Source of the DNA: an uncultured Gemmatimonadales bacterium
GTDB taxonomy: Bacteria; Gemmatimonadota; Gemmatimonadetes; Longimicrobiales; RSA9
Length of the DNA stretch: 64,000 bases
Assembly: GCA_963798855.1 (NCBI GenBank)
Contig: CAWCUU010000002.1
Location: 1,364,567-1,428,566 of the forward strand
Direction of reading: 5' to 3'
Shown: in pieces, positions 3,425-62,830 of the stretch
How positions within the stretch are numbered: position 1 is the stretch's first letter
How the letters are laid out: every line of letters begins with the position of its first letter
Translations under genes and position numbers: made by a program
The notes under the pieces: generated by a model
What the model was told of the DNA's origin: nothing
What the model saw: only the letters and a program-made list of their open reading frames with translations
Database searches by the model: none

Positions 3425-3500
3425 GATTGAAGAGTGAAGTGAGAACTGTGAAGTGTGAGGCGTGAAGACTGAATTGGGAAGTGTGAAGTCCGAAGGGTGA
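3425..3500 (-). promoter_or_regulatory. low-GC leader/promoter region of the APC permease gene with four CTTCAC(A/T) repeats, including CTTCACAGTTC
   Basis: Minus-strand reading: GGACTTCACACTTCCCAATTCAGTCTTCACGCCTCACACTTCACAGTTCTCACTTCACTCTTCAATCGAGAG...GTG. The local GC drop is conspicuous in a 70% GC genome. Confidence 0.45.
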
Positions 3501-3502
3501 CG

Positions 3503-6205
3503 TCAATTCCCGATCCAGTAGGAGAGCTTGAGCAGGAATATGTTGGTGGGGACGCTGTCGAAAATGCCGCGCGTGTCGCGGCCGAGCTCGAAGGTGCCGT
3601 CGGGCAGCGAGTAGCTGCGCTGCTGCTGCCAGACCAGGTAGAGCGTGGAGCCGGGGCGGTATTCCCAGCGCAGCACGGCGTTGCCGCGCAGCGATCGGAA
3701 GGTGAAGTCCGGATCGAAGAACTGGAACGCGGGCGCGGGGCCGTCGGCGTCGGGGTCGACGGTGTAGAAGCCCTGCCTGCCCTGCACGCCGCGGACGATC
3801 GTGCCGCGGTCGACCCCGTAGATCGCGTAGTCGAGCGAGGCCGGCGCATCCAGCTCGCGGAAGGAGGAGTAGCGTCCGGCCGAGACGAATGGCTGCGCGT
3901 AGAGCTGCAGCGACAGCGTCGGCGTGAAGGTCCAGTCGAGGCGGGTGTCCAGCCCGAGCGTCGTCTGGCGCAGCCTGGCGAAGACGTAGCGGCGACCGGA
4001 CGTCGCGTCCGCACTGGGGTCCGCGACGGTGCGCACGTACTGCTGATAGGTCGTCTGCTTCTGCAGGTCGGGGCCGAAGCTGACGTGCACGTTCGTGGCC
4101 GGCCGCGCGTCGAGGGAGATGCTGATCTCGCGACTGTTGCCGCCGAGCTCATCACGGCTGAGGGAGCCGAAGACCTGGGCGACGATCGGCTTGCGGGCGT
4201 CGCTGGAGAAGTAGGCCGAGCCGTACCACTGCGAGGGCGAGCGTGCGAGCGGGCCGCCGCGCGTCAGCCGGTCGCTCATCGTGCGGGGGTTGTAGGTGAA
4301 GCTCGCGCCGATCGTGTGGAAGCTCGACAGCTGCACGTTTCCGGAGCCCGCGAAGCCGTCGTAGATCAGGTCGCCGCCATAGTTCCACGCCTGATTCGTG
4401 TAGACGTAGGCGGAGTAGTTGCGGTACCAGCCGCTCGCCCGGTCCTCGACGTAGCGCAGGAACGTCGAGAACGCGCGGGCGTCCGCTCGCGACAGGAAGC
4501 CGATGTCGTTCAGCTCGAAGCCGGGGCTCACGTCGCGGTAGGAGAGCGAGCCGGTCCAGTGGCGGCCGCCGGCCTTCGCGAGCGCGAGCTCGGCGATGTG
4601 GCCGTCGAGCGCGGTCCGGGTCGGGTCGATTTCCAGGTAGTCGGCGTCCGGCCGCTGGTAGTATCGCGCGCTCGACGCCTGTGCGGCGGCGATGACGTCG
4701 GGCTCGCCGCGGATCCGGCTCCCCGCGACGTACCCGGAGACGGACCACGCCCGGTTCGCCCACGTGTGCAGGAAGTCCGCGCCGCCAATGTAGGCGCCGG
4801 AGCGGAGCAGCCCGGCGAGCGCGGGCAGCGACAGATCGCGGTTCGTCGCCGTGAAGATCCCGCCCAGCACCGAACGCCCCTGCCGCAGGTCCTTGCGAAG
4901 GCGAGCCACCATGTAGTTCGTCAGCGGCTCGACCCGCGTGGTGCGCATGTCACCCGTCGGGTCCGCATAGCGGGCCTCCTCCGGCGTCGTGACCGCGTCC
5001 AGGAAGCCGATCGACCAGCCGCTCGCCGTCTTGCCGCTGACCTTCGCGGCGGTCGCGATCGTGGTCTGGTCCGGCGCGTCGACGTACGCGTACTGCGAGC
5101 CGGACAGGCCGCGCTGCGGTGGCCGCCCGATGCGCCGGGAGTAGAAGTAGATGTAGCGGTTGTAGTTGTTGAAGCTCTGCGTGTTGCCGAACGAGAAGAT
5201 GTCCGATCCCTCGACGAAGAATGGCCGCTTCTCGGGGAAGAACGTCTCGAACGCGCTCAGGTTCACGACGGCCGGATCGACCTCGACCTGACCGAAGTCG
5301 GGATTCACCGTCGCGGTCAGCGTCAGCCCCGCGGGCAGCCCGTACTTCACATCCGCCCCGACGGAGAACGAGGCGTCTGTCGGCTCGAAGAACGGGTTGG
5401 CGGAGCTGCCCGGCGCGCGGACGAGCCGTGCGCTGGTGTAAGGCTGCAGCTCGAAGCGATGTGGCGGGTGGATGCCGTCGAGGCCCGTGAGGTTCCCGAA
5501 CGCGGAGACGAAGCCGGGCGAGCGCCGGGTCCACGGCGACCACGAGTCGCGCTCGTCGTGACGCGCGATGTCGCGCATCACCTGGAACCCCCAGACCCGG
5601 CCGCTGTCGCTTGGCTGTGATCCGAAGCGCAGCTGCGAGAACGGGATCCTGTACTCCGCCGTCCAGCCGAGCGAGTCCACACGCGTCGCCACGTCCCACA
5701 CCGCGTCCCACGAGACGTCCTCGTCGCCGTCGTTCGAGGTGTAGACGTCTTTCTTCACACCGAGTGGGTTGGCCGAGAAGCGGAAGGCGGTACGTCGGTC
5801 GTGATAGCTGTCGATGATGACGTGGACCCAGTCCGAGTAGATGCCGCTGGCGTCGCGCCTGGCCAGCTGGGCCGCGACGGAGTCGGGCTGGTCGTCGCGC
5901 AGACGCACGCCCACGTAGAGCGCGTCGTCGTCGTACAACACTCGCACCTCGGTCCGCTCCGTCGGCTCCGCGTTCGGCTGCGGCCAGCTCTGCATGAAGT
6001 CCGAGCCGACCGGGGCGGCCGCCCACGCCGCCTCGTTCAACCGCCCGTCGATGTCGACAGGCCCGGTGCGCCGCTCGGCGTCGAGTGCGGGCGTCGGGCC
6101 GAGGTGCCCGTTCGACGGCGGCTGCGCGCCCTGCGCGATGAGCGGACGTGGCGCCGTGAACGCGGCGGCCGCGAGTACAATGATCGAGAGGATGTCGCGA
6201 TTCAT
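3503..6205 (-). CDS. DUF5916 / carbohydrate-binding-family-9-like outer-membrane/secreted protein (900 aa, signal peptide)
   Basis: Long non-junk ORF with signal peptide MNRDILSIIVLAAAAFTAPRPLIAQ. Conserved blocks (NPDFGQVEVDPAVVNLSAFETFFPEKRPFF; RSLRGNAVLRWEYRPGSTL) are shared with the paralog at 23406..26141. Confidence 0.85.
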   Translation of the reverse strand: MNRDILSIIVLAAAAFTAPRPLIAQGAQPPSNGHLGPTPALDAERRTGPVDIDGRLNEAAWAAAPVGSDFMQSWPQPNAEPTERTEVRVLYDDDALYVGVRLRDDQPDSVAAQLARRDASGIYSDWVHVIIDSYHDRRTAFRFSANPLGVKKDVYTSNDGDEDVSWDAVWDVATRVDSLGWTAEYRIPFSQLRFGSQPSDSGRVWGFQVMRDIARHDERDSWSPWTRRSPGFVSAFGNLTGLDGIHPPHRFELQPYTSARLVRAPGSSANPFFEPTDASFSVGADVKYGLPAGLTLTATVNPDFGQVEVDPAVVNLSAFETFFPEKRPFFVEGSDIFSFGNTQSFNNYNRYIYFYSRRIGRPPQRGLSGSQYAYVDAPDQTTIATAAKVSGKTASGWSIGFLDAVTTPEEARYADPTGDMRTTRVEPLTNYMVARLRKDLRQGRSVLGGIFTATNRDLSLPALAGLLRSGAYIGGADFLHTWANRAWSVSGYVAGSRIRGEPDVIAAAQASSARYYQRPDADYLEIDPTRTALDGHIAELALAKAGGRHWTGSLSYRDVSPGFELNDIGFLSRADARAFSTFLRYVEDRASGWYRNYSAYVYTNQAWNYGGDLIYDGFAGSGNVQLSSFHTIGASFTYNPRTMSDRLTRGGPLARSPSQWYGSAYFSSDARKPIVAQVFGSLSRDELGGNSREISISLDARPATNVHVSFGPDLQKQTTYQQYVRTVADPSADATSGRRYVFARLRQTTLGLDTRLDWTFTPTLSLQLYAQPFVSAGRYSSFRELDAPASLDYAIYGVDRGTIVRGVQGRQGFYTVDPDADGPAPAFQFFDPDFTFRSLRGNAVLRWEYRPGSTLYLVWQQQRSYSLPDGTFELGRDTRGIFDSVPTNIFLLKLSYWIGN

Positions 6206-6962: not shown

Positions 6963-7060
6963 GTCCACTCTCCTCGTATGATGCGAACGTCCGCCGTCCG
7001 TCGTTGGATCGGCTCCGTCCACGAACTAGACGCCTGCCGGTGAGGAAACGTTAAGGGGGA

Positions 7061-7252
7061 CTGCAGGCGCTGAGGGCAGGCGTATACTGCAGGCGCTGAG
7101 GGCAGGCGCTGACTGCAGGCGCTGAGGGAAGGCGCTGACTGCAGGCGCTGAGGGCAGGCGTTTACTGCAGGCGCTGAGGGCAGGCGTTTACTGCAGGCGC
7201 TGAGGGCAGGCGTTTACTGCAGCCGCTGAGGGCAGGCGCTGAGGGCAGGCGC
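7061..7252. repeat. ~7.5 tandem copies of a 26-bp unit CTGCAGGCGCTGAGGGCAGGCG(TTT/CTG/TAT)A, in the divergent promoter region between the Spy-like gene and tauE
   Basis: Read directly. The unit is itself a 13-bp half-repeat (GCAGGCGCTGAGG / GCAGGCGTTTACT). Related to the GGCGCTGAC family below. Confidence 0.9.
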
Positions 7253-7496
7253 CGTTTCGCTAGGAGTCGGGGACGCGATGCGGCCAGATCGATCGACGAG
7301 GTGTTTTCGCCGTGGCGTAATATATTCGCCACCGTCAGTGGGCGTTGACCGCTCTGGAAGTGACGTTGACGGTTGGCGTCACGGTCTGCCGCCTATCGGG
7401 TGAGCGGTTGACGGGCATCGGTGGCCGTTTAGCCGGGCGTGCAGCGGCGTGGGCAGCCCGGACGCAAACGGCAGGATCGGAAGAGTCACAGGAGAG

Positions 7497-8330
7497 ATGA
7501 TGGGATTTGCGGAGGTGGCGGAGTTCGTGGTGCTCGGGTTCGGCGTCGGGGTGTACGGGACGATGGTTGGGGCGGGGGGCGGGTTCCTGATCGTGCCGGT
7601 GCTGCTGCTGATGTACCACGCAGATCCGGCGCGGGCGGCGGGGACGTCGATCACGGTGGTCTTCTTCAACGCGTTCTCTGGCTCGCTCTCCTATGCGAGG
7701 CAGAAGCGGATCGACTACAGGGCCGGACTCACATTCGCGGTCGCGACGGTGCCGGGCGCGGTGGCGGGCGCGTACATGGCGGAGCTGTTCAAGGGGCGAG
7801 ACTTCCACATCATTTTCGCGATCCTGCTGCTGGCGATCGCCGGCGTGCTGATCTGGCGACCGACCGGGGTGGCGGAGGAGGGACCGCCGGAGCCGCTCGA
7901 GGAGCATGAGGCACACCACTGGTGGAAGGTCGAGCACCGCATCGAGGATGCGAGCGGTCACGTTTTCCACTACCGCTACAACATCCTGGTCGGGACGGTG
8001 CTGAGCATCTTCGTCGGGTTCCTGTCGAGCATCCTCGGGATCGGCGGCGGCATCATCCACGTGCCGGCGCTGATCCACCTGCTGGCGTTTCCGGCACACG
8101 TCGCGACGGCGACATCTCACTTCATCCTGGCGATCTCGGCGCTGGTGGGCGCGGTCACGCACTTCGGCCTGGGCCACGTGATGGTTGGCCCCGCGCTGAC
8201 GATGGGGGTGGGCGTCGTGGTCGGCGCCCAGCTCGGTGCCCGGCTGGCGCGCCGGGTACACGGCGCGGTGGTGATCCGGATGCTGTCGCTGGCCCTGGTG
8301 GTCGTGGCGGTGCGGCTGCTCATGAAGTGA
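7497..8330 (+). CDS. TauE/SafE (DUF81) family sulfite/anion exporter
   Basis: MMGFAEVAEFVVLGFGVGVYGTMVGAGGGF... with two DUF81 halves. AGGAGAG RBS at 7490-7496 just upstream of ATG 7497. Confidence 0.85.
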   Translation: MMGFAEVAEFVVLGFGVGVYGTMVGAGGGFLIVPVLLLMYHADPARAAGTSITVVFFNAFSGSLSYARQKRIDYRAGLTFAVATVPGAVAGAYMAELFKGRDFHIIFAILLLAIAGVLIWRPTGVAEEGPPEPLEEHEAHHWWKVEHRIEDASGHVFHYRYNILVGTVLSIFVGFLSSILGIGGGIIHVPALIHLLAFPAHVATATSHFILAISALVGAVTHFGLGHVMVGPALTMGVGVVVGAQLGARLARRVHGAVVIRMLSLALVVVAVRLLMK

Positions 8331-8356
8331 AGGCGCTGACGGAAGGCGCTGACGAA
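8331..8356. repeat. two tandem AAGGCGCTGACG(G/A) units immediately after the tauE stop
   Basis: GTGA-AGGCGCTGACGG-AAGGCGCTGACGA. Forward-orientation member of the GGCGCTGAC family. Confidence 0.8.
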
Positions 8357-8425
8357 GGGGCGGGGGCTGATCGGAGTGGCCGCTCCGGCTATGGAGGTGC
8401 GCGTCGGCTCGGCCGAGATTATGGC

Positions 8426-8848
8426 ATGTCGAGCGAATCTCGGGAACTACTCTTCCGGCATGAGCGGATGCCGGTCTTCACGCTGGCGGTCGAAGCGGCC
8501 GTCGCGGCGGATGAGCTCGCACGACTGCTGCCGAGGGTCCACCTGTATCTTGCGGACCAGCTTCGGAGGGCCGCTTCCTCCATCGTGCTGAACATCGGCG
8601 AGGGAGCCGGAGAGCACCGGAGTCCGGAGAAGGCGCGCTTCTATCGAATCGCCCGCCGCTCGGCGACCGAAGCATCCGCCGTGCTGGAGCTTGCGATCGC
8701 GCTTCGACTACTCGAGCGTCCGACGATCGCGACCGCGAAGGAGCGCCTGATCACGGTGGCCGGCATGTTGACACGGTTGTGCCGGCGGTTCGAGGCCGCT
8801 CCTCACCCACGCTCCGACGGCTCGCGGCCTCCCGTGCGAACCGACTGA
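8426..8848 (+). CDS. four-helix-bundle protein (23S rRNA intervening-sequence protein family, TIGR02436-like)
   Basis: YLADQLRRAASSIVLNIGEGAGEHRSPEKARFYRIARRSATEASAVLELAIAL matches the family hallmark. ATG at 8426 in the frame of ORF 7922..8848. Confidence 0.75.
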   Translation: MSSESRELLFRHERMPVFTLAVEAAVAADELARLLPRVHLYLADQLRRAASSIVLNIGEGAGEHRSPEKARFYRIARRSATEASAVLELAIALRLLERPTIATAKERLITVAGMLTRLCRRFEAAPHPRSDGSRPPVRTD

Positions 8849-8861
8849 TGGACTACCTTCC

Positions 8862-8944
8862 AGTCAGCGCCTCTCAGTGAGCGCCTCTCAGTCAGCGCCT
8901 CTCAGTAGCGCCTCGCCGTCAGCGCCTCACCGTCAGCGCCTCAC
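8862..8944. repeat. six tandem GTCAGCGCCTC(TCA/ACC) units in reverse-complement orientation, between the four-helix-bundle gene stop and the BNR hydrolase stop
   Basis: CAGTCAGCGCCTCTCAGTGAGCGCCTCTCAGTCAGCGCCTCTCAGTAGCGCCTCGCCGTCAGCGCCTCACCGTCAGCGCCTCACC. Inverted relative to 8331..8356. Confidence 0.85.
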
Positions 8945-11900
8945 CGTGAAATGATGACCGGCAGCCTTCGCCCTTGCAGCTTCGCCTGAAAGGAGGGGAG
9001 CTCCGTCTCCATCAGCGTGCGGTAGTCCTGGCGCGCTTTCTCCAGTCGCTGGCGCAGGACGTCGTGGGTCTCGCGCTGTTGCTGGGTGGGAGGGAAATCC
9101 GCGCCGTTCGCGAAGACGTCGCTGGCGAGGGCGCTGAGGCGGCCGTAGAGCTTCATGGGCGCGCGGAACGCGTCCTCGCGGGCGCCGGTCAGGTTGACGT
9201 CGAAGAGCTGGCGCTCGACGTCCAGGGTCTTCTGCTCGAGCTGGCGCGACGCAGAGACGATGTCCGACGCGGTGGAGTCGTCGTGGAGCATCGTCTGTGC
9301 CTCATCGAGCTGCTTCCTCAGCCACTCCAGGCGGTCGACCATGCGTGTCAGGTCGCCGAGCTCGTCGCTCAGCTGCAGCCCCATCGCGACCTGTGCGGCA
9401 ATGTCGCCGACAGAGCCCGTGGAGTGCGGGTCCTTCAGCACCGTCAGCGGCTGGGTGAGCGTCCGGTCGCCGACGGCGAGGCGGACCGTGTACTGTCCCG
9501 GCGCGACACGCGGCCCCACCTGTCCGCCGGTGAGGTCGAGGTCCCAGGTGACGAGCGGACGAGTGCCATCTTCGCGCATCTCGACCCAGGGCGCCGCAGG
9601 CGGCGGCGTGCGCAGCGCCGGCTTCGGCGGCGCCTCGTAGCGGAGGTCCCACCAGACGCGGTTGAGCCCCTGCTTCTTCCCCCCGTCGAGAGTGCGGATG
9701 ACGCTGTCGGCCTCGAGGATCTCGACCTCGACGGGGCCCTCGTTGTCGGCGCCGAGCCAGTAGTCGATGTCGGCGCCGTAGCGCGGGTCGCTGCCGGTCA
9801 CGTTGCTGTTCGGCGCGGCGGCGACGTCGTGGATCGGAATGAAGCGATAGGCCGGCCTCGGCGCGAGGAGCTGCACGTCGGAGGCGAGCAGCTCGGCGTC
9901 GAGCGCGCGCAGCGGCGTGACATCGTCGAGAATCCAGTAACCGCGGCCGTAGGTGCCGATGACGAGGTCGTGGAAGTGTGGCTGCACGGTGAGCCAGTAT
10001 ACGGGCGCGGGTGGCATGTTGTTGCGCAGCGCGTTCCAGTGCGCGCCGTCATCGAGCGAGAACCAGGTCGAGTTCTCGGTTCCGGCGTAGAGCATGCCGC
10101 GACGGACGGGGTCTTCGCGGACGACGTGAACGAAGGAGAAGACGGAGGGGGGCAGGTCCCCGCTGACTCGCTTCCAGCTGCGCCCGAAGTCGCGGGTCTC
10201 GTAGATGTAGGGCTCGAAATCGGCCATCTGATGGCGGTCCACCGAGATGTAGGCGGTGCCGGCATCCCAGCGCGACGGCTCGACGTTGGAGATCGTGCCG
10301 TAGGGCGGCAGGTCGCGGATGTTCTTGGTGATGTTGACCCAGCTGCCGCCGCCGTCGCGGGTGAGGCTGAGCTGGCCGTCATTGGTCCCGGCCCAGATGA
10401 CCCCCGCCTGCACGGGCGACTCGGCGATTGCGAAGAGCACGGAGCCGTCGAAGGTCATCAGGTTGTCGGTGGTCATGCCGCCGGAGCTCTTCTGCTTCGA
10501 CTTGTCGTTCAGCGTCAGGTCGGGCGAGATGACGTTCCACGAGGCGCCGCCGTCGGTCGTCAGGTGGATACGCTGACTGCCGACGTAGACCCGATTGTGA
10601 TCGTGAGGCGAGATGGCGATCGGGAAGGTCCAGTGCCAGCGCTCCTTCAGCTCGGCCGGCGGCCAGCCGTAGCCCGCCTCCGGCCACACACGGACGTTGC
10701 GCTTCTGCTGCGTCGCCGGGTCGTAGACCTCGAGTCCGCCGTCGTAGCAGCCGGACCAGACGACATTGCCGCCGGCGGTATCCGGAATCGCGAAGCCGCT
10801 CTCACAGCCGCCGACGGAGTGCCACAGACCCTCCGTGATCGAGCCCTGCCGGCTGTTGCTCGGGCCCTTGTAGGAGTAGCCATCCTGCCGGTTACCGTAG
10901 ACGTTGTAGGGGATCTCGTTGTCCACGTGGACGTGGTACATCTGCGCGATCGGGAGCACCACGCGCTGGTAGCTGCGGCCGCGGTTCAGCGTGATGGAAG
11001 CGCCGCCGTCGTGAGCGACCATGTAGCGGTCCGGGTCCTTCGGGTCGATCCAATGTCGTGGTTGTCGCCGCCGGCGCGGAAGCCGCTCTCCAGCGTCGCG
11101 CCGGCGTCGCGGGAGACGCTGAACTTGACGGACGCGAAGTAGAGCCGGTCCTCGTCGCGCGGATCGATGGCGAAGCGAGTGTAGTAGGATGCGCGCTCGG
11201 CCATGTCGTGATCGCGGCTGACGAGGTGCCAGCTGCGGCCGCCATCATCGGAGCGGTAGAGCTCGGGATCGTGCCGCTCGAGCAGGGCGTATACACGACG
11301 CGAGTCGGAGGGCGCGACGCGCACGGCGATCTTGCCGATCGAATCGCCGGCGGCCGGTAGTCCGTGGCCGCTCACCTTGGCCCACGTGTCCCCTCCATCA
11401 CGCGAGACGTAGACGCCGCCGCCGGTGCCGCCGCTCGCCAGCATCCACGGATCGATGCGCAGGCTCCACATCCCGGCGAAGATGACGCTGGGGTCGTTCG
11501 CGTCGATGTCGAGGTCGGCGCATCCGGTGTTCTCGTCGACGAAGAGGACGCGCTTCCAGGTGCGGCCGCCGTCGGCCGTCCGATAGACGCCACGCTCCTG
11601 CTGGGGCCCGTAGGCATGTCCGAGCGCGCACGCGAAGACCACGTTCGGATCGCTCGGATCGACGGCGATACGGCCGATTCGCCCCGTCTCCTCGAGCCCC
11701 ATGCGGCGCCAGCTCGCTCCGGCGTCGGTCGACTTGTAGATGCCATCGCCCAGCGAGAGGGCGGGCCTGATGATGAAGGTCTCGCCCGTGCCGGCCCAGA
11801 CCACATCCGAATCATGCGGATCGATCGCGAGCGCGCTGACCAATGAGACATCCTGATCGTCGAAGACCGGCTCCCAGCTCGCGCCGCCGTCCCTGGTCTT

Positions 11901-12131
11901 GAACAGTCCCCCGGACGCCGCGCCCACGTATGCGACGAGGGGGTTGCCCGGCTCGCCGGCGACGGCGATCGCGCGATTGCCCTCCGGCCCGATGAAGCGG
12001 TAAGGCAGCCGCGCGTAAAGGCTCGTGTCCACGCTCTGCGCCGCCAGTGCGCCCGCCAGCAGCAGGGCCGCTAGCGCGAAGCCGACCCTTGCGCCGGGAC
12101 GGAGTATCGTTCGGGTGCCGGAGCTCATCAT
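8941..12131 (-). pseudogene. BNR/sortilin(Vps10)-like repeat glycosyl-hydrolase-family protein (~1060 aa), interrupted by a 1-nt frameshift near 11050
   Basis: N-terminal part (ORF 10986..12644) starts at the internal ATG 12131 with signal peptide MMSSGTRTILRPGARVGFALAALLLAGALAAQ. C-terminal part is ORF 8941..11022. The junction reads GGDNHD|IGST in one frame and HWIDPKDPDRYMVAHDGG in the other. The expected GGDNHDHWIDP needs one extra C (gacCattgg). Confidence 0.75.
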
Positions 12132-21480: not shown

Positions 21481-21870
21481 CGTGGCGCCGCCCTGGCGGG
21501 CGGGGCGCCGGCGCTTCGCGCGGGGCGCTCCTGCGGAGGGCGCCACTTCGCGGGGGCGGCTTCGCCGGGGGGCGCTCCGCCCTGACGGGCGATCGCGGGG
21601 GGCGCTCCGCCCTGGCGGGCGATCGCGGGGGGCGCTCCGCCCTGGCGGGCGATCGCGGGGGGCGCTCCGCCCTGGCGGGCGATCGCGGGGGGCGCTCCGC
21701 CCTGGCGGGCGATCGCGGGGGGCGCTCCGCCCTGACGGGCGATCGCGGGGGCGCTCCGCCCTGACGGGCGATCGCGGGGGGCGCTCCGCCCTGACGGGCG
21801 ATCGCGGGGGGCGCTCCGCCCTGGCGGGCGATCGCGGGGGGCGCTCCGCCCTGACGGGCGGTCGCGGGGG
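21481..21870. repeat. 30-bp tandem repeat GGCGCTCCGCCCTG(G/A)CGGGCGATCGCGGGG, ~10 near-perfect copies (21568-21868) plus degenerate copies at the 5' flank, upstream of the ECF sigma gene
   Basis: Read directly. Copies differ mainly by G/A at one position (order A,G,G,G,G,A,A,A,G,A) and by one copy of 29 bp. Lies between the nhaA stop and the sigma start on the minus strand. Confidence 0.95.
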
Positions 21871-21871
21871 G

Positions 21872-23191
21872 CTATCCAGCGGGTGGCGTCGTGCGGAGGA
21901 GCAGCCAGCCCACCGCGCCGCTGAGGATGGAGCCGGCGAAGACGCCGACCTTGGCGGCGGCGAGGGCATGGGGGTCGCCGAGGCCGAGCGTCGCAATGAA
22001 GATCGACATCGTGAAGCCGATGCCGCACAGCCATGCGGCGCCGTAGATCTGGCGCCAGGTGACGCCGGCGGGGAGACGGGCGAGGCCGAGTCCGATCGCG
22101 GCGCGGGCGAAGATCATGACGCCGGCCTGCTTGCCGAGGACGAGGCCGAGCGCGACGCCGGCGGTTACGTTCGCGGCGGCGCCGGTGCTGCCGCGCAGGT
22201 GCACGCCGGCGTTCGCGAGCGCGAAGAGGGGCATGACGAGGTACGCGACGTATCCGTGCAAAGCGTTTTCGAAGCGGCAGAGCGGGCTCTGCACGTGCCG
22301 GCAGGCCATCTCGAGGTGGTGCGCGGCGTGGCGCTGCTCGATCGTCGGTGGTCCGGCCCGGTGGCCGTGGGGGTCGAGGATCTCGGCGAGGCCGCGCACG
22401 TGCTGGACGAAGTCGCTGCGATGCATGCGTCGCGTCGCGGGGATCAGCAGCGCGACGAGCACACCCGCCACGGTGGCGTGCACGCCGGAGTCCAGGACCG
22501 TGATCCAGACGCCGCCACCGAGCACGGCGTAGACGACCGGTCGCCAGATGTGCAGCCGGTTCGCGAGCGCGATCAACGCGAGCAACAGCAGCGCGATGCC
22601 GAGGCTGGTCCATGCGATCTTCCCGGTGTAGAAGATCGCGATGACGATCACGGCCCCCAGGTCGTCGGCGATCGCGAGGGCGGCGAGGAAGATTTTCAGG
22701 CCGAGCGGAATCCGTCGGTTCAGCAGCGATAGCACCCCGAGCGAGAAGGCGATGTCGGTGGCCATGGGGATACCCCAGCCGGTGTGCGCCGGGGTTCCGG
22801 CGTTCAGGGCGAGGTAGATGGTAGCCGGCACGATCATTCCGCCGAGCGCCGCGATCAGCGGTAGAAGCGCCTTCTTCGGTGCCGAAAGCTCGCCGATCAG
22901 CAACTCCCTCTTGATCTCGAGGCCGACGAGGAAGAAGAACATGGCCATCAGACCATCGTTGATCCAGTCGCGTAGCGGCTTCTCGAGGGCGTAGAACGGG
23001 CTGGAGACGCCGATCGGCATCTCCCAGACGCGGTCGTAGGAGGCCGCGAAGGGACTGTTGGCCCAGAGGACGGCGGTCAGAGCGGCCGCCAGCAGGATGA
23101 TTCCGCCCGACGCCTCCATCCGGAGGAAAGTCTGGAACGGGCGGATCAGGGCGCTCCGCGGGAGGCGCCTTCGTACCTTCGTCGCGTTCAT
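21872..23191 (-). CDS. nhaA: Na+/H+ antiporter NhaA
   Basis: NhaA fold motifs (FFFLVGLEIKRE; AIADDLGAV). Internal ATG 23191 (MNATKVRRRLP...). Confidence 0.9.
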   Translation of the reverse strand: MNATKVRRRLPRSALIRPFQTFLRMEASGGIILLAAALTAVLWANSPFAASYDRVWEMPIGVSSPFYALEKPLRDWINDGLMAMFFFLVGLEIKRELLIGELSAPKKALLPLIAALGGMIVPATIYLALNAGTPAHTGWGIPMATDIAFSLGVLSLLNRRIPLGLKIFLAALAIADDLGAVIVIAIFYTGKIAWTSLGIALLLLALIALANRLHIWRPVVYAVLGGGVWITVLDSGVHATVAGVLVALLIPATRRMHRSDFVQHVRGLAEILDPHGHRAGPPTIEQRHAAHHLEMACRHVQSPLCRFENALHGYVAYLVMPLFALANAGVHLRGSTGAAANVTAGVALGLVLGKQAGVMIFARAAIGLGLARLPAGVTWRQIYGAAWLCGIGFTMSIFIATLGLGDPHALAAAKVGVFAGSILSGAVGWLLLRTTPPAG

Positions 23192-23405
23192 CCCCACCTC
23201 GCCACCACTGCCGCTCCAAGATGCGTTGAACCCGCGGCCGGCGACAGGGGTTTTCGGGGCAGGCAGCCTTGCCGTCACGGCCCTCCGGCGCCGGTGCGAG
23301 CGAGCGGGCCACCAGCGCTCGGGCGAGGAGCGGATTCAACCATCTCCGCGCTGGCGGTGTCCAATGCATTGATGGCCGGCTCTCACCCCCTGCGGAGATC
23401 CCCCG

Positions 23406-35658: not shown

Positions 35659-35749
35659 GGTCGTTCCGGGTTGGGGGCGCTCGGTGAGGGAACCTCCGCT
35701 GAAAGATAGGGGCCGCGGATGAGGACCGCACGGGTGACGTCGGCGCTGA

Positions 35750-35930
35750 TACTGCGAGGCGCTGACTGCGAGGCGCTGACTGCGAGGCGCTGACTGCGAG
35801 GCGCTGACTGCAGGCGCTGACTGCAGGCGTTCACCACAGGCGCCTCGGCGTCAGCGCCTTCCTTCGACGCCTCGCCGCCAACGCCTGCTTTCAGCGCCTT
35901 CCTTCGACGCCTCGCCGTCAGCGCCTTACA
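35750..35930. repeat. palindromic GGCGCTGAC array: five forward CTGCGAGGCGCTGA units, a central spacer, then reverse-orientation GTCAGCGCC/GACGCCTCGCC units
   Basis: ACTGCGAGGCGCTGACTGCGAGGCGCTGACTGCGAGGCGCTGACTGCGAGGCGCTGACTGCAGGCGCTGACTGCAGGCGTTCACCACAGGCGCCTCGGCGTCAGCGCCTTCCTTCGACGCCTCGCC...GTCAGCGCCTTA. Between the saccharopine dehydrogenase stop and the LemA start. Confidence 0.85.
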
Positions 35931-46811: not shown

Positions 46812-47098
46812 GGGCAGGCGCTGACGGCAGGCGCTGACGGCAGGCGCTAACGGCAGGCGCTGACAGCAGGCGCTTACGGCAGGCGCTGACGGCAGGCGCT
46901 TACGGCAGGCGCTGACAGCAGGCGCTGACGGCAGGCGCTGACAGCAGGCGTATCCTGCTTCGACGCATCGTCCTGAGCGCCTCGCAGTGCGCGCCTCGCC
47001 GTGCGCGCCTCGCCGTGCGCGCCTCGCCGTGCGCGCCTCGCCTTGAGCGCCTCACTTTGAGCGCCTCGGTTCGAGCGCCTCGCAGTCAGCGCCTGCCT
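46812..47098. repeat. largest GGCGCTGAC array: ~10 forward GGCAGGCGCT(G/T/A)AC units (46812-46945) followed by a reverse arm of (GTGCGCGCCTCGCC)4 and GAGCGCCTC units, in the convergent gap between the aminotransferase and ABC-2 permease genes
   Basis: Read directly. The arms are imperfectly complementary, giving a long imperfect hairpin. Confidence 0.9.
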
Positions 47099-59959: not shown

Positions 59960-61044
59960 GCCGGCACGGAGTCATCGCCCGCTGGGGCACCTGGCTGCCC
60001 ATCACCGCCGAGACGCCCCGCCTGACGCTGCAGGAGGGAGACACGCCGCTGCTGCCGGCGCCCCGCCTCGCGCGTTGGGTCGGGGTCGAGGAGCTGCTGC
60101 TGAAGGTCGAGGGTCTGAACCCGACCGGCTCCTTCAAGGATCGGGGCATGGTGGTGGCCGTCGCGAAGGCGCTCGAGGATGGCGCCGAGACCGTGCTGTG
60201 CGCGTCCACCGGGAACACTTCCGCAAGCGCCTCCGCCTATGCGGCGCGGGCGGGGATCCGCGCCGTGGTGCTGCTCCCCGGCGGAAAGGTCGCGGCCGGA
60301 AAGGTGGCGCAGGCCGTCGTCCACGGCGCCCGCATCGTCTCGCTGCGCGCGAACTTCGACGTCGCGCTGGATCTCGCGCGGGCCATCGTCGCCCGTCACC
60401 CCGCGGTGCTCGTGAATTCCGTGAACCCGTACCGGCTCGAGGGTCAGGCCACCGCCGCCTACGAGATCTGCGAGGCGCTCGGCGGCGCGCCCGACGTACT
60501 GGCGCTCCCGCTCGGCAACGGCGGCAACATCACGGCGTACGCCATGGGGTTTTCGCGCTGGAAAGAGGCGGGGCGCATCGCAGCCCGGCCGGCGCTGATC
60601 GGGGTGCAGGCGGAGGGCGCCGCGCCGTTCGTCGCCGGACACCCGATCGACGCGCCGGAGACCGTCGCGACCGCGATCCGTATCGGCCGCCCGGCGACGT
60701 GGGAGCCGGCGATCGCCGCGGCGACGGAGTCCGGAGGTCACATCCTCGCCGTTCCCGACGACGCCATCCTCGAGGCCTATCATGAGATTCCGCGACAGGA
60801 GGGCGTGTTCTGCGAGCCGGCATCTGCCGCATCGGTCGCCGGGCTGCGGGCCGCGGTGCGGGAAGGCCGCATCGATGCGCGCTCACGCTGCGTGTGCGTG
60901 CTGACCGGAAACGGGCTCAAGGATCCGGCGACCGCGGTGCCGGCCGATTTCCGGGTCGAGGAGCTGGAGGCGGATGAGGCAGGGGTGGTGGCTGCGCTTC
61001 GCTTGCAGGGCAAGGGCAAGGGCAAGGGCAAGGGCCAGGGCTAG
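59956..61044 (+). CDS. thrC: threonine synthase, with an unusual (GK)n C-terminal tail
   Basis: PLP-lysine motif NPTGSFKDRGM. ATGA overlap with thrB. C-terminus GKGKGKGKGQG is encoded by a (GGCAAG)5 microsatellite. Confidence 0.9.
   Translation: MSRHGVIARWGTWLPITAETPRLTLQEGDTPLLPAPRLARWVGVEELLLKVEGLNPTGSFKDRGMVVAVAKALEDGAETVLCASTGNTSASASAYAARAGIRAVVLLPGGKVAAGKVAQAVVHGARIVSLRANFDVALDLARAIVARHPAVLVNSVNPYRLEGQATAAYEICEALGGAPDVLALPLGNGGNITAYAMGFSRWKEAGRIAARPALIGVQAEGAAPFVAGHPIDAPETVATAIRIGRPATWEPAIAAATESGGHILAVPDDAILEAYHEIPRQEGVFCEPASAASVAGLRAAVREGRIDARSRCVCVLTGNGLKDPATAVPADFRVEELEADEAGVVAALRLQGKGKGKGKGQG
61008..61040. repeat. (GGCAAG)5 GGCCAGGGC hexanucleotide microsatellite forming the 3' end of thrC
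   Basis: Read directly. An imperfect inverse copy (CTCGCC)3(CTAGCC)2 sits at ~61401-61430. Confidence 0.8.
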
Positions 61045-61080
61045 GAGGGGAAGAGCGAGGAAGGGAGGAGGTCGGTGGGC

Positions 61081-61338
61081 TCAAAGGTCAGGTGGGGGAG
61101 TGTCGGAGGGGTGAGGGAAGAGGAGGTCGGTGGCGGCGTGGAGCTCGAGGAGGGCGTCGGGGACGCCGAGATCGAGCAGGGCCCGGCGGACGGGAGGCTT
61201 TCGGGCGGGATCGTCGACCACCACCCAGACGCGGTCCGCCGTCACGAGCAGCCGGACCACTCCCTCGATGGCCTGAATCTCGGAACCGAGCCGTCGCACG
61301 ATCGCGTCTGGCTCTTCCGGCGGTGTCACGTCGGTCAT
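61081..61338 (-). CDS. small hypothetical protein (85 aa)
   Basis: Non-junk composition (MTDVTPPEEPDAIVRRLGSEIQAIEGVVRLLVTADRVWVVVDDPARKPP...). No known family. Sits between the hexamer repeat and a hairpin. Confidence 0.3.
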   Translation of the reverse strand: MTDVTPPEEPDAIVRRLGSEIQAIEGVVRLLVTADRVWVVVDDPARKPPVRRALLDLGVPDALLELHAATDLLFPHPSDTPPPDL

Positions 61339-61362: not shown

Positions 61363-61416
61363 GACGAGGGCGAGGGACCCGGAAGCAGCCCGGCGACTCC
61401 TCGCCCTCGCCCTCGC
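61363..61416 (-). terminator. GC-rich hairpin (GAGGGCGAGGG ... CCCTCGCCCTC, ~11-bp stem, ~25-nt loop) between the lipoprotein gene stop and the small ORF start
   Basis: Self-complementarity read directly. No U-tract, so classification as an intrinsic terminator is weak. Confidence 0.3.
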
Positions 61417-61431
61417 CCTAGCCCTAGCCTC

Positions 61432-62532
61432 TTAGTGATCGTGCGCGTGGTGGAAGGGCTGGAAGACGTTCTCCGCGAAGGCGAAGAGGTCGTCGATGGC
61501 CTGCCAGAGCTTCTGCAGTGCCTGCACGTCCGCGTCGCTCAGAGCGGATCCGTCGGGATGCGTGAATGTCGGGCTCTCGGCGGTCCCGCCAATGATCACC
61601 ATCGCATCGCCGTTGTAGGTGAGCTGACCGTCGATGGAACCGTCCTGCGCCAGCGTGGTGGCGAGCACCGCGGTCGAGCCATCATGCGTGACGGTCATCG
61701 TCACGTCGAAGGTGAAGGGCTCCTCCTGACCTATCGCGATCTGGCCGGTGCCAATCAGGTGGATGGTGTCATCGGTGCCGGACCTCGAGACCGAGTAGTC
61801 GATCGCGAGCTGGAGGAAGTCGGAGCTCTGGGAGATCGTGACGGTCTGCGAGAGGTCGAAGTCGACCTGGCTCGACCCGTCGGAGAGGAGGCCGACCGCG
61901 CCCAGCGTGGCCGTGACCGCCGTCGTGGTCTCCGTGTAGGACGCATCCACGTAATAGTCCGCCAGCACCGCCGAGGTCGGGCTGGTCCGCACGACCTTGA
62001 TGCCGAGGCGCGTAGACGCAGCCGTGCTGAGGTCCGTCAGGTCGACATAGCCCAGAGCGTTCAGCGGCGCCGCCGGCCGTTGGGTAGTCGGGTCGATCGC
62101 GTAGTAGATGATTCGGACGCCGTTCGCCGGCGCGTCCATCGCGTCCGGATCGATCACGTAATACCCGTCGGTCGTGCTCCACACCAGCGTCTTGCCAAGC
62201 AGGTTGGACGGGAACATCGGCAGCCCGGCGGGCTGCTCCGCGTAGCGCCTCGCGCGATCGTACGACGGCAGCAGCCCGGCCGGCGACGTCGGGCCGGGAA
62301 CGAGTTGCGCCGAGATCGTGCCGGCGAGCACATCCGCGGCGAGCCCGATACTGCTCAGCGCGTTCGCGTCGGCCGGCACACCGGTAACGTTCTGCGCGGC
62401 GGTCGCGGCTCCCTGCGGATCGTAGGGGCCGTTCGGCCCGGCCACTTTAGCGGAATCACAGCCCGCGGCGACGAGCCCGATCGCCAGCGCGATCGCGGCC
62501 GTGCGCGCCGGCACGCCGTGTCTGGACCTCAT
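61432..62532 (-). CDS. lipoprotein, function unknown (366 aa)
   Basis: Internal ATG 62532 with GGAGGG RBS. Lipobox MRSRHGVPARTAAIALAIGLVAAGC. Ser/Thr/Asp-rich beta-rich body. Confidence 0.6.
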   Translation of the reverse strand: MRSRHGVPARTAAIALAIGLVAAGCDSAKVAGPNGPYDPQGAATAAQNVTGVPADANALSSIGLAADVLAGTISAQLVPGPTSPAGLLPSYDRARRYAEQPAGLPMFPSNLLGKTLVWSTTDGYYVIDPDAMDAPANGVRIIYYAIDPTTQRPAAPLNALGYVDLTDLSTAASTRLGIKVVRTSPTSAVLADYYVDASYTETTTAVTATLGAVGLLSDGSSQVDFDLSQTVTISQSSDFLQLAIDYSVSRSGTDDTIHLIGTGQIAIGQEEPFTFDVTMTVTHDGSTAVLATTLAQDGSIDGQLTYNGDAMVIIGGTAESPTFTHPDGSALSDADVQALQKLWQAIDDLFAFAENVFQPFHHAHDH

Positions 62533-62830
62533 GTGGGACCCTCCGTCTTGGTTGGCGAGAGGGGTTGCGGCCGGGGACCGACCCCGAAAACGGCGAGGAT
62601 GTGGTGTGGGCAAGCCGCGTTCCGGGGCCGCGGAAACAGCTGAAGTCACTGCGGCCGCTACAGTTGGTAGACGGCTGGCGAGGCCACGGCCGTGATGGGG
62701 TGTGCATTGAGGTGGACAGCAGGCGTACTTTTTTCAGGGCGAGGGGCCGTGCTGGCCCGAAACCGGCAGGAGGATCTGCTGGAGGTCATCGAGGCGCACC
62801 CGCAGAGACTCGTAGAGCCAAATAGATCCA

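Follow-up and report, generated by a model that had tools for sequence, protein, structure and literature searches.

A PF05635 four-helix-bundle gene bracketed by inverted tandem arrays between convergent genes of an uncultured Gemmatimonadales bacterium

The gene, its neighbours and the flanking arrays

The window, a stretch of 64,000 nucleotides (64 kb) from a contig of an uncultured Gemmatimonadales bacterium, contains an intact gene encoding a small four-helix-bundle protein (S23p/Avd-like, PF05635). The gene lies in a 610-nt spacer on which a TauE/SafE-family permease gene and a BNR/sortilin-type gene converge with their 3' ends (Table 1). Profile searches with the 140-amino-acid polypeptide matched PF05635 (67.1 bits, 1.8e-18; Pfam, cut-off 33.8) and TIGR02436 (66.3 bits, 2.5e-18; NCBIfam, cut-off 24), which on profile evidence makes it a genuine member of this family, in agreement with the TIGR02436-type identity proposed in a first-pass annotation of the DNA. 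The conserved motif of PF05635 has been given as GxxRxxxSxxxNxxE (PMC3936711); the segment RRAASSIVLNIGEG of the window protein carries RxxxSxxxNxxE, with Q replacing the first G. The protein retains all 26 columns that are invariant in an alignment of 34 family sequences, and its N-terminus aligns from position 8426. Support for this start comes from FRHERMPVF, which aligns with the conserved FxHERLDVY of the family; the database call of 126 amino acids, beginning at M15, is too short. The structure PDB 2GSC (XCC0516), an entry with five chains, matched the protein with E = 3.7e-8, and proteins of the PF05635/Avd fold are described as pentameric helical bundles (Lin 2006, as cited in PMC4990558). 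The gene has a GC3 of 0.77, the genome average being 0.893 +/- 0.027. Its nearest homologue shares 57% identity, with none higher in 5.8 billion clusters, and DNA similarity is limited to the core of the ORF. No second four-helix-bundle gene was found in the 64-kb window, for which the genes around the locus and the array loci were profiled.

Table 1 Genes and tandem arrays of the window
Feature	Position	Strand	Evidence and remarks
Forward-only array, 14.6 x 13 nt (26-nt super-unit), no four-helix-bundle gene	7060..7252	+	TRF, sequence, units
TauE/SafE-family permease gene	7449..8330	+	Pfam 5.2e-52; upstream of and on same strand as four-helix-bundle gene
Forward array, 2.3 x GAAGGCGCTGACG	8329..8358	+	TRF, repeat search, sequence
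Four-helix-bundle protein gene, 140 aa	8426..8848	+	PF05635 / TIGR02436; RxxxSxxxNxxE motif present
Reverse array, 5.9 x 14-nt unit CAGTCAGCGCCTCT	8861..8942	-	TRF (89% matches), repeat search, unit list
BNR/sortilin-type gene, C-terminal part, convergent	8941..11022	-	Pfam, tblastn
Back-to-back pair, forward 35742-35829, reverse 35840-35926, no four-helix-bundle gene	35742..35926		TRF, sequence
Back-to-back pair, forward 46813-46950, reverse 46974-47094, no four-helix-bundle gene	46813..47094		TRF, sequence

The gene follows TauE at a distance of 95 nt. The BNR/sortilin-type gene is broken by a frameshift near 11052 relative to its 1063-amino-acid orthologue, as judged by a tblastn search with the orthologue of the closest relative (L103), which matched in two frames. 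Scans for sigma-70 promoters and intrinsic terminators returned 0 promoters and 0 terminators in 8200-9050, and no promoter- or terminator-like site lies between the TauE and four-helix-bundle genes. No Rfam family reached its threshold in the 64-kb window, and hence no rRNA match was obtained; the locus is not in an rRNA gene and its flanks are protein-coding genes. PADLOC and PHROGs scans returned nothing at the locus, and the window has no cas genes.

Both sides of the gene carry short tandem arrays. The first unit of the upstream array overlaps the stop codon TGA of TauE (8328-8330). The array contains two identical full copies of 13 nt, with 94% matches over its length (TRF), and a degenerate third unit extends it to about position 8378. 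The distance from the end of the array to the ATG of the gene is 67 nt. The downstream array begins 13 nt after the stop codon (8846-8848), and its units read (G/T)GAGGCGCTGAC on the minus strand, one of them with GTGAGCGCC and another with a 1-nt deletion; the stop codon of the BNR/sortilin-type gene (8941-8943, minus strand) lies inside the last unit. The first-pass annotation had reported this bracketed gene with slightly different spacings and with two forward and six reverse units, and the values given here and in Table 1 confirm it with small corrections. The two arms are complementary over 12 nt perfectly, over 19 nt at 84% and over 32 nt at 75% (repeat search, inverted matches I1-I9), with a period of 13 nt upstream versus 14 nt downstream. 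The predicted arm-arm RNA duplex (-85.5 kcal/mol versus -51.9 +/- 4.9 for shuffled arms, z = -6.8) and the predicted MFE fold of 8320-8960, which pairs the arms across the gene, are in good agreement with the stem-loop-like arrangement suggested earlier.

The sequence GGCGCTGAC, allowing at most one mismatch, occurs 115 times in the window versus 57.6 +/- 7.1 expected, and runs of AGGCG/CGCCT at 12-15-nt spacing occur six times versus none in shuffles. The array repeat can also be written as the AGGCGCUGAC repeat or (AGGCGCUGACNNN)n. A search of the cassette (8359-8425 and the 3' tail) for decayed hexamer arrays revealed nothing convincing. No transposase, outer terminal repeat or target-site duplication was found at the locus. 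A CRISPR array was rejected, as the units are 13-14 nt long and lie head to tail without spacers (CRISPR arrays have 23-50-nt repeats and unique spacers). A diversity-generating retroelement was also rejected, given TauE and the BNR/sortilin-type gene as immediate neighbours and no long non-array repeat around the locus in the repeat search.

AGGCG arrays at other loci and the locus in related genomes

Arrays sharing an invariant AGGCG every 13-14 nt are present at four loci in the 64 kb, all intergenic, of which three have no four-helix-bundle gene; these three had been overlooked in the first-pass annotation. The array at 7060-7252 occupies the divergent LTXXQ/TauE promoter region. The pair at 35742-35926 abuts the stop codon of a saccharopine-dehydrogenase-like gene, and that at 46813-47094 takes up the whole spacer separating two convergent stop codons (neighbours identified by Pfam); their predicted hairpins have energies of -126.5 kcal/mol (z = -8.5) and -208.9 kcal/mol (z = -9.3), respectively. 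Overall, AGGCG arrays abut or overlap the stop codons of the TauE, BNR, aminotransferase, ABC-2 permease and saccharopine dehydrogenase genes, and arrays of other unit types likewise follow the stop codons of NhaA, a PALP enzyme gene and two further genes. On the sense strand of the preceding gene the arrays are rich in G, and the G-rich arm comes first in all four inverted pairs of the window. No transposase adjoins any array locus. Because of the three gene-less intergenic loci, the AGGCG-N8-9 arrays are to be regarded as a genome-wide family and not as private ends of a cassette. The first-pass annotation had taken the repeats for cassette ends, while naming repeats without the gene as an observation that would speak against this; the arrays flanking the gene share unit type, polarity and stop-abutting position with the other arrays of the host. 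Genome contigs were also searched with AGGCGCTGA-N4-5-AGGCGCTGA. Among the matches listed, most were single chance matches in high-GC genomes, and the few real arrays came from unrelated phyla and had no four-helix-bundle gene nearby.

REP/BIME elements are short intergenic hairpin repeats located after stop codons, often as inverted pairs, which are dispersed in one genome and lineage-specific. In REPIN-RAYT systems, a single RAYT gene is flanked by inverted REP sequences and REPINs are dispersed through intergenic regions. These systems were reportedly treated by Nunvar et al. in 2010 and by Bertels and Rainey in 2011. The arrays of the window are similarly intergenic and dispersed and form hairpins as inverted pairs downstream of genes, with one gene flanked. 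Unlike REP sequences, their units are in tandem arrays of 2-15 copies and are not single palindromes, and the flanked gene encodes a four-helix bundle and not an HUH (IS200/IS605-like) transposase. By inference from these features, the AGGCG-N8-9 hairpins may, like REP/BIME, serve at the 3' ends of genes as terminators or mRNA stabilisers.

The closest relative (L103) has 72% identity in TauE, 77-82% in BNR and 78% in Kup, and synteny with the window is kept over more than 12 kb. In the protein collection, its TauE was the best match (72%); the others were at most 65% identical and without synteny at the junction. The TauE-BNR spacer of the closest relative, although syntenic, lacks the four-helix-bundle gene, which is also missing beside TauE in three further relative contexts, none of them syntenic at the junction. 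Based on its absence from the spacer of the relative, its low GC3 and a nearest homologue of only 57% identity, the gene was probably acquired horizontally. The earlier suggestion of inserted or mobile DNA is thus supported with respect to the gene itself, absent from the relative and atypical in GC3, but not by any transposase, outer repeat or target duplication. An AGGCG-containing array is located upstream of TauE in the closest relative too (L103 7265-7313), without the gene at the locus. A tandem array also follows the TauE stop codon directly in this genome, but its sequence is unrelated to the AGGCG units; the presence of an array at this position in a genome lacking the gene indicates that 3' arrays are a habit of the clade, independent of the gene. 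In the window genome AGGCG arrays are frequent, and about 60 kb of related genomes without the gene contained essentially none, a difference that fits a link between gene and arrays.

Array-bracketed relatives across the PF05635 family

A survey of 80 metagenome loci encoding PF05635 relatives (63-75 scorable per measure) identified bracketing by inverted short tandem arrays as the rule in this family, extending the earlier observation beyond the window. The family arrays are inverted hexamers of about 5.3 units (32 nt) whose two arms co-vary. Flanking inverted arms scoring at least 13 were present at 25 of 63 loci versus 2 of 63 in a direct-orientation control, and in 51 of 68 loci an array lay at the 3' end of the gene or shortly beyond it. 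Array density was 13-fold higher near the gene than at a distance from it, where the density of 0.18 per kb was mostly explained by transposase-containing elements. Where arrays flanked the gene on both sides (51 loci), the units were exact reverse complements in 36 loci, with at least nine unit types. In the array-gene-array class as delineated here, one array is within about 10-140 nt upstream of the start codon and the other between -70 and +45 nt relative to the stop codon. Approximately two thirds to three quarters of the relatives have arrays of their own, mostly GGGNNN hexamers unlike the 13/14-nt units of the window, which adds to the case against the cassette reading of the first-pass annotation. 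Of 27 upstream arrays of cassette type in relatives, 24 are C-rich, the opposite of the polarity in the window.

Many copies reside inside transposons or exist as short transposase-less derivatives. At least 37 of 88 neighbouring ORFs encode DDE transposases, belonging to at least five families, and relatives were found inside IS630-, IS66- and IS5/IS1182-type elements with TA or CTAG at their tips. Three element groups were examined, and in each the arrays form a subterminal portion of terminal inverted repeats of 57-90 nt; transposase-deleted derivatives keep the four-helix-bundle gene. Other family elements are free between genes or wedged in operons (cas, imuAB-dnaE2). In the closest named relative, a hexamer array-gene-array unit exactly fills the spacer between convergent genes, and gene-less hexamer hairpins adjoin some cassettes (loci L183, L108 and L109). 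Among 47 arm pairs of relatives, G.U-compatible mismatches numbered 31 in the sense and 34 in the antisense direction (72 other mismatches); with no strand bias, a model of the RNase III/IVS type is not favoured over a terminal-repeat role at the DNA level. The plasmid collection contained no close relative of this subfamily, with matches at 31-38% identity. The literature, as far as it was covered, gave no account of PF05635 genes flanked by arrays or carried on IS elements.

PF05635 genes inserted in cas operons have been described as small four-helix-bundle genes wedged between unrelated genes of the same strand (PMC3936711). In Anabaena sp. 90 (cas6-4HB-cas4) and Picosynechococcus (cmr2-4HB-cmr3) these genes are bracketed by inverted short repeats with the G-rich arm first, as in the window. 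The units are 7-8 nt long, unlike those of the window, which has no cas genes. On the Anabaena plasmid pANA02 the repeats are G-first 7-mers, GGTGACA/TGTCACC, which are private to the gene and occur nowhere else in 50 kb. Unit length and polarity thus vary in distant members of the family. The window locus resembles the array-gene-array class in its inverted bracketing and in the distances between arrays and gene. It differs in unit length (13/14 nt), copy number (2.3 + 5.9 in place of about 5.3) and G-rich-first order, in arrays that are not private to the gene and run straight into the stop codons of the neighbours, and in having no outer repeat, target duplication or transposase.

Origin of the locus and its implications

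Our leading reading, which we regard as an evenly balanced call, is that the gene is lodged in a 3'-end array hairpin of the host. Arrays that begin at stop codons and run forward and then reverse would produce a long imperfect hairpin after a gene; here two half-arrays are separated by the gene, which therefore would have landed, or been retained, at the apex of a hairpin of this kind. This is consistent with gene-less arrays that share AGGCG and are predicted to fold strongly, with arrays abutting stop codons and a G-rich-first order unlike that of most relatives, and with the AGGCG array upstream of TauE and the array after its stop codon in the closest relative, which lacks the gene. The evidence for acquisition given above points in the same direction, as do arms that are predicted to pair across the gene and a site with no promoter-like, terminator-like or Rfam match. 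With no recognisable promoter of its own, the gene would probably be expressed by read-through from TauE, and on a read-through transcript the arrays may pair across it, placing the ORF within a stem-loop.

Such an enclosed ORF would have the geometry of the S23p ORFs in 23S rRNA intervening sequences (IVS), whose stem is cut by RNase III. The IVS of Coxiella burnetii is a 428-nt element with a 28-bp stem cut by this enzyme and with three heptamers just upstream of the ORF (PMC4990558). Like the IVS of Leptospira and C. burnetii, the window locus has a PF05635 ORF in a loop that is closed, in the predicted fold, by stem-forming complementary ends, has short tandem repeats just upstream of the ORF and would be expressed via the host transcript. 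Unlike an IVS it lies outside rRNA and is not inserted in helix 25 or 45 of 23S rRNA, and its arms are tandem arrays also found elsewhere in the genome. PF05635 also resembles Avd, the accessory protein of diversity-generating retroelements (PMC10053308), with the same fold and family neighbourhood and pentameric helical bundles, the pentamer of the window protein being predicted by similarity to 2GSC; unlike avd, the window gene has no adjacent reverse transcriptase or template/variable repeats. A likeness to IS elements with MITE-like derivatives is seen in the IS630, IS66 and IS5/IS1182 elements on which relatives of the gene ride and in its variable presence among related genomes, but the locus has no family-specific outer repeat, transposase or target duplication. 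We know of no IS element with subterminal hexamer arrays and a PF05635 passenger.

Several observations argue against the host-hairpin reading. Bracketing by arrays is the norm in the family, being found in the closest named relative and in the distant members with G-first 7-mers, so that a chance landing between host arrays is not the sole natural reading. The gene lacks any trace of its own arrays, such as most relatives possess, and AGGCG arrays are essentially absent from the gene-less relatives sampled. Less probably, the arrays are functional partners of the gene and the locus is a lineage-specific array-4HB-array cassette with 13/14-nt, G-first units. The pentamer would then bind the repeats, as RNA or DNA, and the gene-less hairpins might be non-autonomous derivatives or targets in trans, paralleling a RAYT gene and its dispersed REPINs. 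The inverted arms, 3' arrays, density near the gene and exact reverse-complement units of the family survey all favour such a partnership, as do gene-less hexamer hairpins beside cassettes and the differences in unit length and polarity among lineages, exemplified by the 7-mers of the cas-operon gene. The upstream array of 30 nt is also near the family's modal 32 nt, and AGGCG arrays are frequent in this genome, for which the link between arrays and gene was judged on the 64 kb of the window. Elsewhere, however, arrays stay with the gene, being scarce away from it and private to it on pANA02, whereas in the window unrelated array types after other stop codons indicate that arrays do not need the gene, and the closest relative has an AGGCG array upstream of TauE without the gene at the locus.

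We consider it improbable that the gene is ancestral at the locus and was deleted in the relative, with arrays expanding independently on both sides. The inverted arrangement would then simply reflect the rule that an array is G-rich on the sense strand of whichever convergent gene carries it, and the convergent pairs 46811/47099 and 61044/61432 indeed both have the same forward-then-reverse order; all family-invariant residues are intact, suggesting a gene under selection rather than a fresh arrival. Low GC3, the lack of any homologue above 57% or beside TauE in the four relative contexts and the demonstrable mobility of the family elsewhere argue against ancestry. It is very improbable that the inverted arrays are recombination sites of an invertible or excisable DNA module, a stronger form of the rearranging module suggested in the first-pass annotation, for which only the inverted geometry speaks, given imperfect arms (75-84% over 19-32 nt) of different period and a locus with no recombinase, transposase or target-site duplication and no evidence of inversion. 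Taken together, the observation made in the first-pass annotation is confirmed and its interpretation is only partly supported.

The results also draw attention to the window organism itself, in which the DNA immediately behind stop codons is systematically taken up by tandem arrays; this bears on termination and mRNA stability in high-GC Gemmatimonadota without canonical terminators at these sites. For the family, S23p or '23S rRNA IVS' proteins, whose function has been open since the early 1990s, have lacked an explanation that unites their occurrence in rRNA insertions, diversity-generating retroelements and cas operons. What these proteins have in common is a genomic signature, an ORF enclosed by inverted short tandem arrays with co-varying arms, and this family-level architecture is strongly supported. 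On the most far-reaching reading, PF05635 genes outside rRNA and diversity-generating retroelements would be cargo of a widespread, apparently undescribed small array-enclosed element. In one subfamily the module is placed directly internal to the terminal repeats of several unrelated transposon families and outlasts deletion of the transposase. Array length clusters at about five units and the protein crystallises as a pentamer, raising the candidate hypothesis that each subunit of the protein binds one array unit, and the module may serve transposon-end biology or transcript insulation. Only tentatively can the window locus be seen as a 13/14-nt-unit member whose protein would act on AGGCG arrays, with gene-less hairpins as derivatives or trans-targets, a reservation that applies to the window-specific link between gene and arrays. 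If true, this would be a counterpart of RAYT/REPIN based on a protein that binds nucleic acids but is not an enzyme.

The four-helix-bundle gene and its origin

The open reading frame at 8426-8848 scored 67.1 bits against PF05635 (cut-off 33.8) and 66.3 bits against TIGR02436 (cut-off 24), confirming its first-pass annotation as a TIGR02436-type four-helix-bundle (4HB) gene. The protein also matched XCC0516 of Xanthomonas, whose structure is solved (PDB 2GSC, five chains in that entry). The public protein record comprises 126 amino acids and begins at Met15; the peptide FRHERMPVF, N-terminal to this residue (window 8426-8467), aligns with the family-conserved FxHERLDVY. Because the conserved FxHER motif precedes Met15, a start at 8426 is preferable, and the alignment indicates that the public record is probably truncated.

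The 4HB gene starts 95 nt 3' of a TauE permease gene on the same strand, and a scan of the interval between the two revealed no promoter-like or terminator-like site. The region sequence is as previously described, with arrays on both sides of the gene identified by TRF and a repeat finder (table below); the downstream array has a substitution in one unit and a 1-nt deletion in one. The proposed mutual inversion of the arrays was borne out by the repeat finder, with a perfect match over 12 nt, 84% over 19 nt and 75% over 32 nt, and in the predicted RNA fold the two arms are able to pair across the gene. A tblastn search of the 64-kb window yielded no second 4HB gene.

TauE homologues placed the organism in Gemmatimonadota. 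The closest relative, L103 (TauE 72% identical), shares the order amino-acid permease, LTXXQ, TauE, BNR, Kup, FtsX and MFP with the window at 58–90% protein identity. The syntenic TauE-BNR spacer of L103 is just 184 nt, lacks the 4HB gene and contains a CAGACCCCCG-type tandem array (L103 8155-8258) unrelated in sequence to the window arrays. Arrays of this type occupy two intergenic sites in L103 (8155-8258 and 3844-3931), in opposite orientations. Since L103 has its own array family, array families turn over fast between related genomes. The 4HB gene was also absent beside TauE in three further relative contexts, none of them syntenic at the TauE-BNR junction. The GC3 of the gene (0.77, compared with 0.893 ± 0.027 for 26 window genes), the 57% identity of its nearest homologue and a DNA similarity to relatives limited to the conserved ORF core fit acquisition in this lineage. 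The convergent BNR/sortilin-type gene downstream (8941-12040, minus strand) is split into two frames near 11052, with 76–82% identity to the 1063-aa L103 orthologue on either side, and is either a frameshift pseudogene or the product of a long-read indel error.

Tandem arrays behind stop codons in the window

The repeats had been read as marking a 4HB cassette, but the same family occurs without such a gene at three loci in the window, an outcome that the initial reading had itself named as counting against it. The motif of these AGGCG arrays, tandem repeats of 13-14 nt, has 115 matches within one mismatch in the 64-kb window (57.6 ± 7.1 expected), and AGGCG runs at 12-15-nt spacing number six, with none in shuffles. 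When the arrays were split at AGGCG, the pentamer was invariant every 13-14 nt and the other 8-9 nt varied between and within arrays; some of these unit-length differences may be indel errors, because the BNR gene is frameshifted and the assembly is probably long-read. The back-to-back pairs at 46813-47094 and 35742-35926 are predicted to form long imperfect hairpins (-208.9 and -126.5 kcal/mol, z = -9.3 and -8.5, respectively). The gene-less arrays neighbour genes with ordinary housekeeping roles (LemA, saccharopine dehydrogenase, aminotransferase, ABC-2 permease). The GAAGGCGCTGACG-type repeats are thus a genome-wide family, judged from the 64 kb surveyed, and not demonstrably cassette ends.

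Tandem arrays right behind stops are a widespread feature of this genome, and at least seven gene ends in the 64-kb window have one. The first unit of the upstream array overlaps the TauE TGA, the BNR stop sits within the last unit of the downstream array, and AGGCG arrays likewise run into stops at 46811, 47099 and 35926. Arrays of other types adjoin the stops of NhaA and of a 900-aa gene, and GGGCAA and AGGGCG hexamer arrays lie at the ends of two convergent genes, at 61044 and 61432. Between these inverted hexamer arrays, in the same layout as the 4HB locus and with the G-rich arm first, lies an 85-aa ORF (61081-61338, minus strand, GC3 0.80) without a match in Pfam, NCBIfam, PHROGs or PADLOC. 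The G-rich array comes first in all four inverted pairs of the window, because every gene is followed, past its stop codon, by an array that is G-rich on that gene's sense strand.

Arrays of the window and loci of PF05635 relatives
Feature	Location	Orientation	Description
Upstream array	8329-8358	forward	2.3 copies of GAAGGCGCTGACG
Downstream array	8861-8942	reverse	5.9 copies of 14-nt unit CAGTCAGCGCCTCT
Gene-less AGGCG array	7060-7252	forward only	14.6 units
Gene-less AGGCG pair	35742-35829; 35840-35926	forward; reverse	
Gene-less AGGCG pair	46813-46950; 46974-47094	forward; reverse	
30-nt unit CGGGGGGCGCTCCGCCCTGACGGGCGATCG, internally palindromic	21566-21872		10.3 copies, 97% identity; ends exactly at stop of NhaA antiporter gene (21872-23278, minus strand)
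7-nt unit TGAAGTG	3428-3500		~10 copies; adjoins stop of 900-aa gene (3503-6205, minus strand)
(GGGCAA)6.5	61007-61045		encodes GKGKGKGQG tail of PALP-enzyme gene
(CGCCCT/AGCCCT)5.2	61399-61429		adjoins stop of convergent gene 61432-62649
4HB gene in operon	L188 6001-6429	same strand	imuA-4HB-imuB-dnaE2; arrays both sides, pair not complementary
4HB gene in operon	L154 3974-4360; L157 3974-4360	same strand	imuB-4HB-dnaE2; short arrays both sides
cas6-4HB-cas4, Anabaena sp. 90	L191 2489-2857		~300 nt of GGTGACA/GGGAACA heptamers upstream; (TGTCACC)4 downstream
cmr2-4HB-cmr3, Picosynechococcus	L192 2483-2839		GGAGATAA-type repeats on one side, their complement on the other
IS-borne PF05635 genes	L110, L111, L116, L118, L120, L121, L123, L127, L134, L142, L144, L161, L164, L165, L167, L174, L176, L177, L182		

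Array framing and mobility of the PF05635 family

Relatives of the 4HB gene were sampled as 80 metagenome loci (40–55% identical, hosts of 33–71% GC), picked by similarity to one protein and mostly on short contigs. Typically, TRF identified two hexamer arrays per ORF, one upstream (CGTGCC, CCCTTG, CGAGCC, CCGCGT or CGTGTG, among others) and one of reverse-complement units at the 3' end of the ORF or shortly beyond it. Of 63 loci with sufficient flanking sequence, 25 had inverted arms scoring at least 13 (direct-orientation control, 2 of 63), an array lay around the stop in 51 of 68, and hexamer array density was 2.38 per kb near the gene vs 0.18 per kb farther off. The 145 arrays had a median copy number of 5.3 (interquartile range 4.3–5.5) and a median length of 32 nt; 93 contained four or more runs of GGG or CCC, and upstream arrays were C-rich in 24 of 27 cases. 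Consensus units were exact reverse complements in 36 of 51 loci with two-sided arrays; such matching was seen with nine or more different unit types, and the arms therefore co-vary. In an alignment of 33 selected close homologues many C-termini were dipeptide repeats (GSGSGS, GTGTGT, DADADA, GQGQGQ), because the ORF reads into its 3' array. Homology between related copies that sit in different contexts ends at the outer array edge, and in the closest named relative, from a Kofleriaceae genome, array, gene and array exactly fill the spacer between convergent genes, as at the window locus, the Kofleriaceae units being hexamers.

Where the partner array was absent nearby, it was found 0.6-1.7 kb away, with a DDE transposase gene filling the gap to the 4HB gene. 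Transposases of five families were the nearest-neighbour ORFs in at least 37 of 88 cases (DDE_Tnp_1 of IS5/IS1182/IS4 14, IS66 10, IS630 DDE_3 7, ISAzo13 3, DDE_5 3), although metagenome assemblies may over-represent transposon-borne copies; the assignment was confirmed on individual proteins. PF05635 genes adjoin the transposase in IS630, IS66 and IS5/IS1182 elements, and DDE_5 and ISAzo13 transposases neighbour such genes too. In three element groups the ends are 57-90-nt terminal inverted repeats with a family-specific outer part and an inner hexamer array, tipped by TA in IS630 and CTAG in the IS5/IS1182 type; between related copies from different samples, shared homology stops just outside the arrays. 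In many cases the transposase gene overlaps the 4HB gene or is separated from it by a few bases; these are therefore integrated units and not fresh insertions. Two loci (L173 and L151) represent versions of the L116 element that have lost all or part of the transposase and kept the 4HB gene and terminal repeats. The family does live in repeat-bounded mobile modules.

PF05635 genes are known from cas loci (PMC3936711), and two cyanobacterial plasmid 4HB genes, 31–35% identical to a relative, sit within cas operons, on the strand of their neighbours and with the G-rich arm first as in the window; in Anabaena the heptamer arrays are confined to the surroundings of this gene within 50 kb of plasmid. 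On Anabaena sp. 90 plasmid pANA02 (L193 10137-10176) a 9-nt repeat, TTCATCCTG x 4.4, separates the DGR reverse transcriptase gene from the gene annotated as avd; there are hints that short arrays accompany the Avd branch too. The IVS of Coxiella, where the S23p protein is classically found, likewise holds an ORF with a 28-bp, RNase III-cut terminal stem and three tandem heptamers upstream (PMC4990558). Our incomplete coverage of the literature yielded no description of array framing of PF05635 genes, or of such a module inside IS elements.

Origin and role of the flanking arrays

We favour, with about even confidence, a reading in which the 4HB gene would have been inserted among the genome's own 3'-end arrays, bringing none of its own. 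The flanking arrays share unit family, polarity and stop-abutting position with other 3'-end arrays, and the clade has such arrays irrespective of the gene. That the arrays are instead functional partners of the 4HB gene is somewhat unlikely in our view. Under the family rule, inverted arrays are to be expected on either side of the gene, units differ in length and polarity among family members, and the AGGCG family, essentially absent from ~60 kb of relatives, is expanded in exactly the genome with the gene; however, dispersal of such arrays is rare elsewhere. A rough weighing gave comparable products for insertion among host arrays (~0.3 of relatives without their own arrays; ~0.25 of convergent spacers here with arrays) and for partnership (~0.7 of relatives with their own arrays; dispersal rare elsewhere). 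The balance tips to host arrays because other array types follow stops in this genome and the gene-less L103 has an AGGCG-containing 22-mer repeat upstream of TauE, at the position of the window's 7060-7252 array.

On either reading the 4HB gene would be expressed by read-through from TauE and be enclosed in an IVS-like stem-loop, both likely because of the 95-nt same-strand spacing, the lack of a promoter- or terminator-like site and the ability of the arms to pair. Mismatches in 47 arm pairs of relatives showed no sense-strand G.U bias (31 vs 34), and an RNA-specific role of the arms is therefore not favoured; a function like that of terminal repeats at the DNA level, in which one and the same protein binds the two ends, is at least as good a fit. 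That the hexamer units number about five and the protein is pentameric is no more than suggestive. As for the small mobile or rearranging module initially proposed, the support is partial: the gene is accessory, insertion-like and from a mobile family, and the repeats beside it are not demonstrably cassette ends. We would class the locus with the IVS-type 'S23p ORF in a stem-loop', as a variant. Across the family, the ORF seems generally to be enclosed by short tandem repeats in inverted orientation, whose unit length and polarity differ by lineage, and this family-level array architecture is a more interesting result than the window locus itself.
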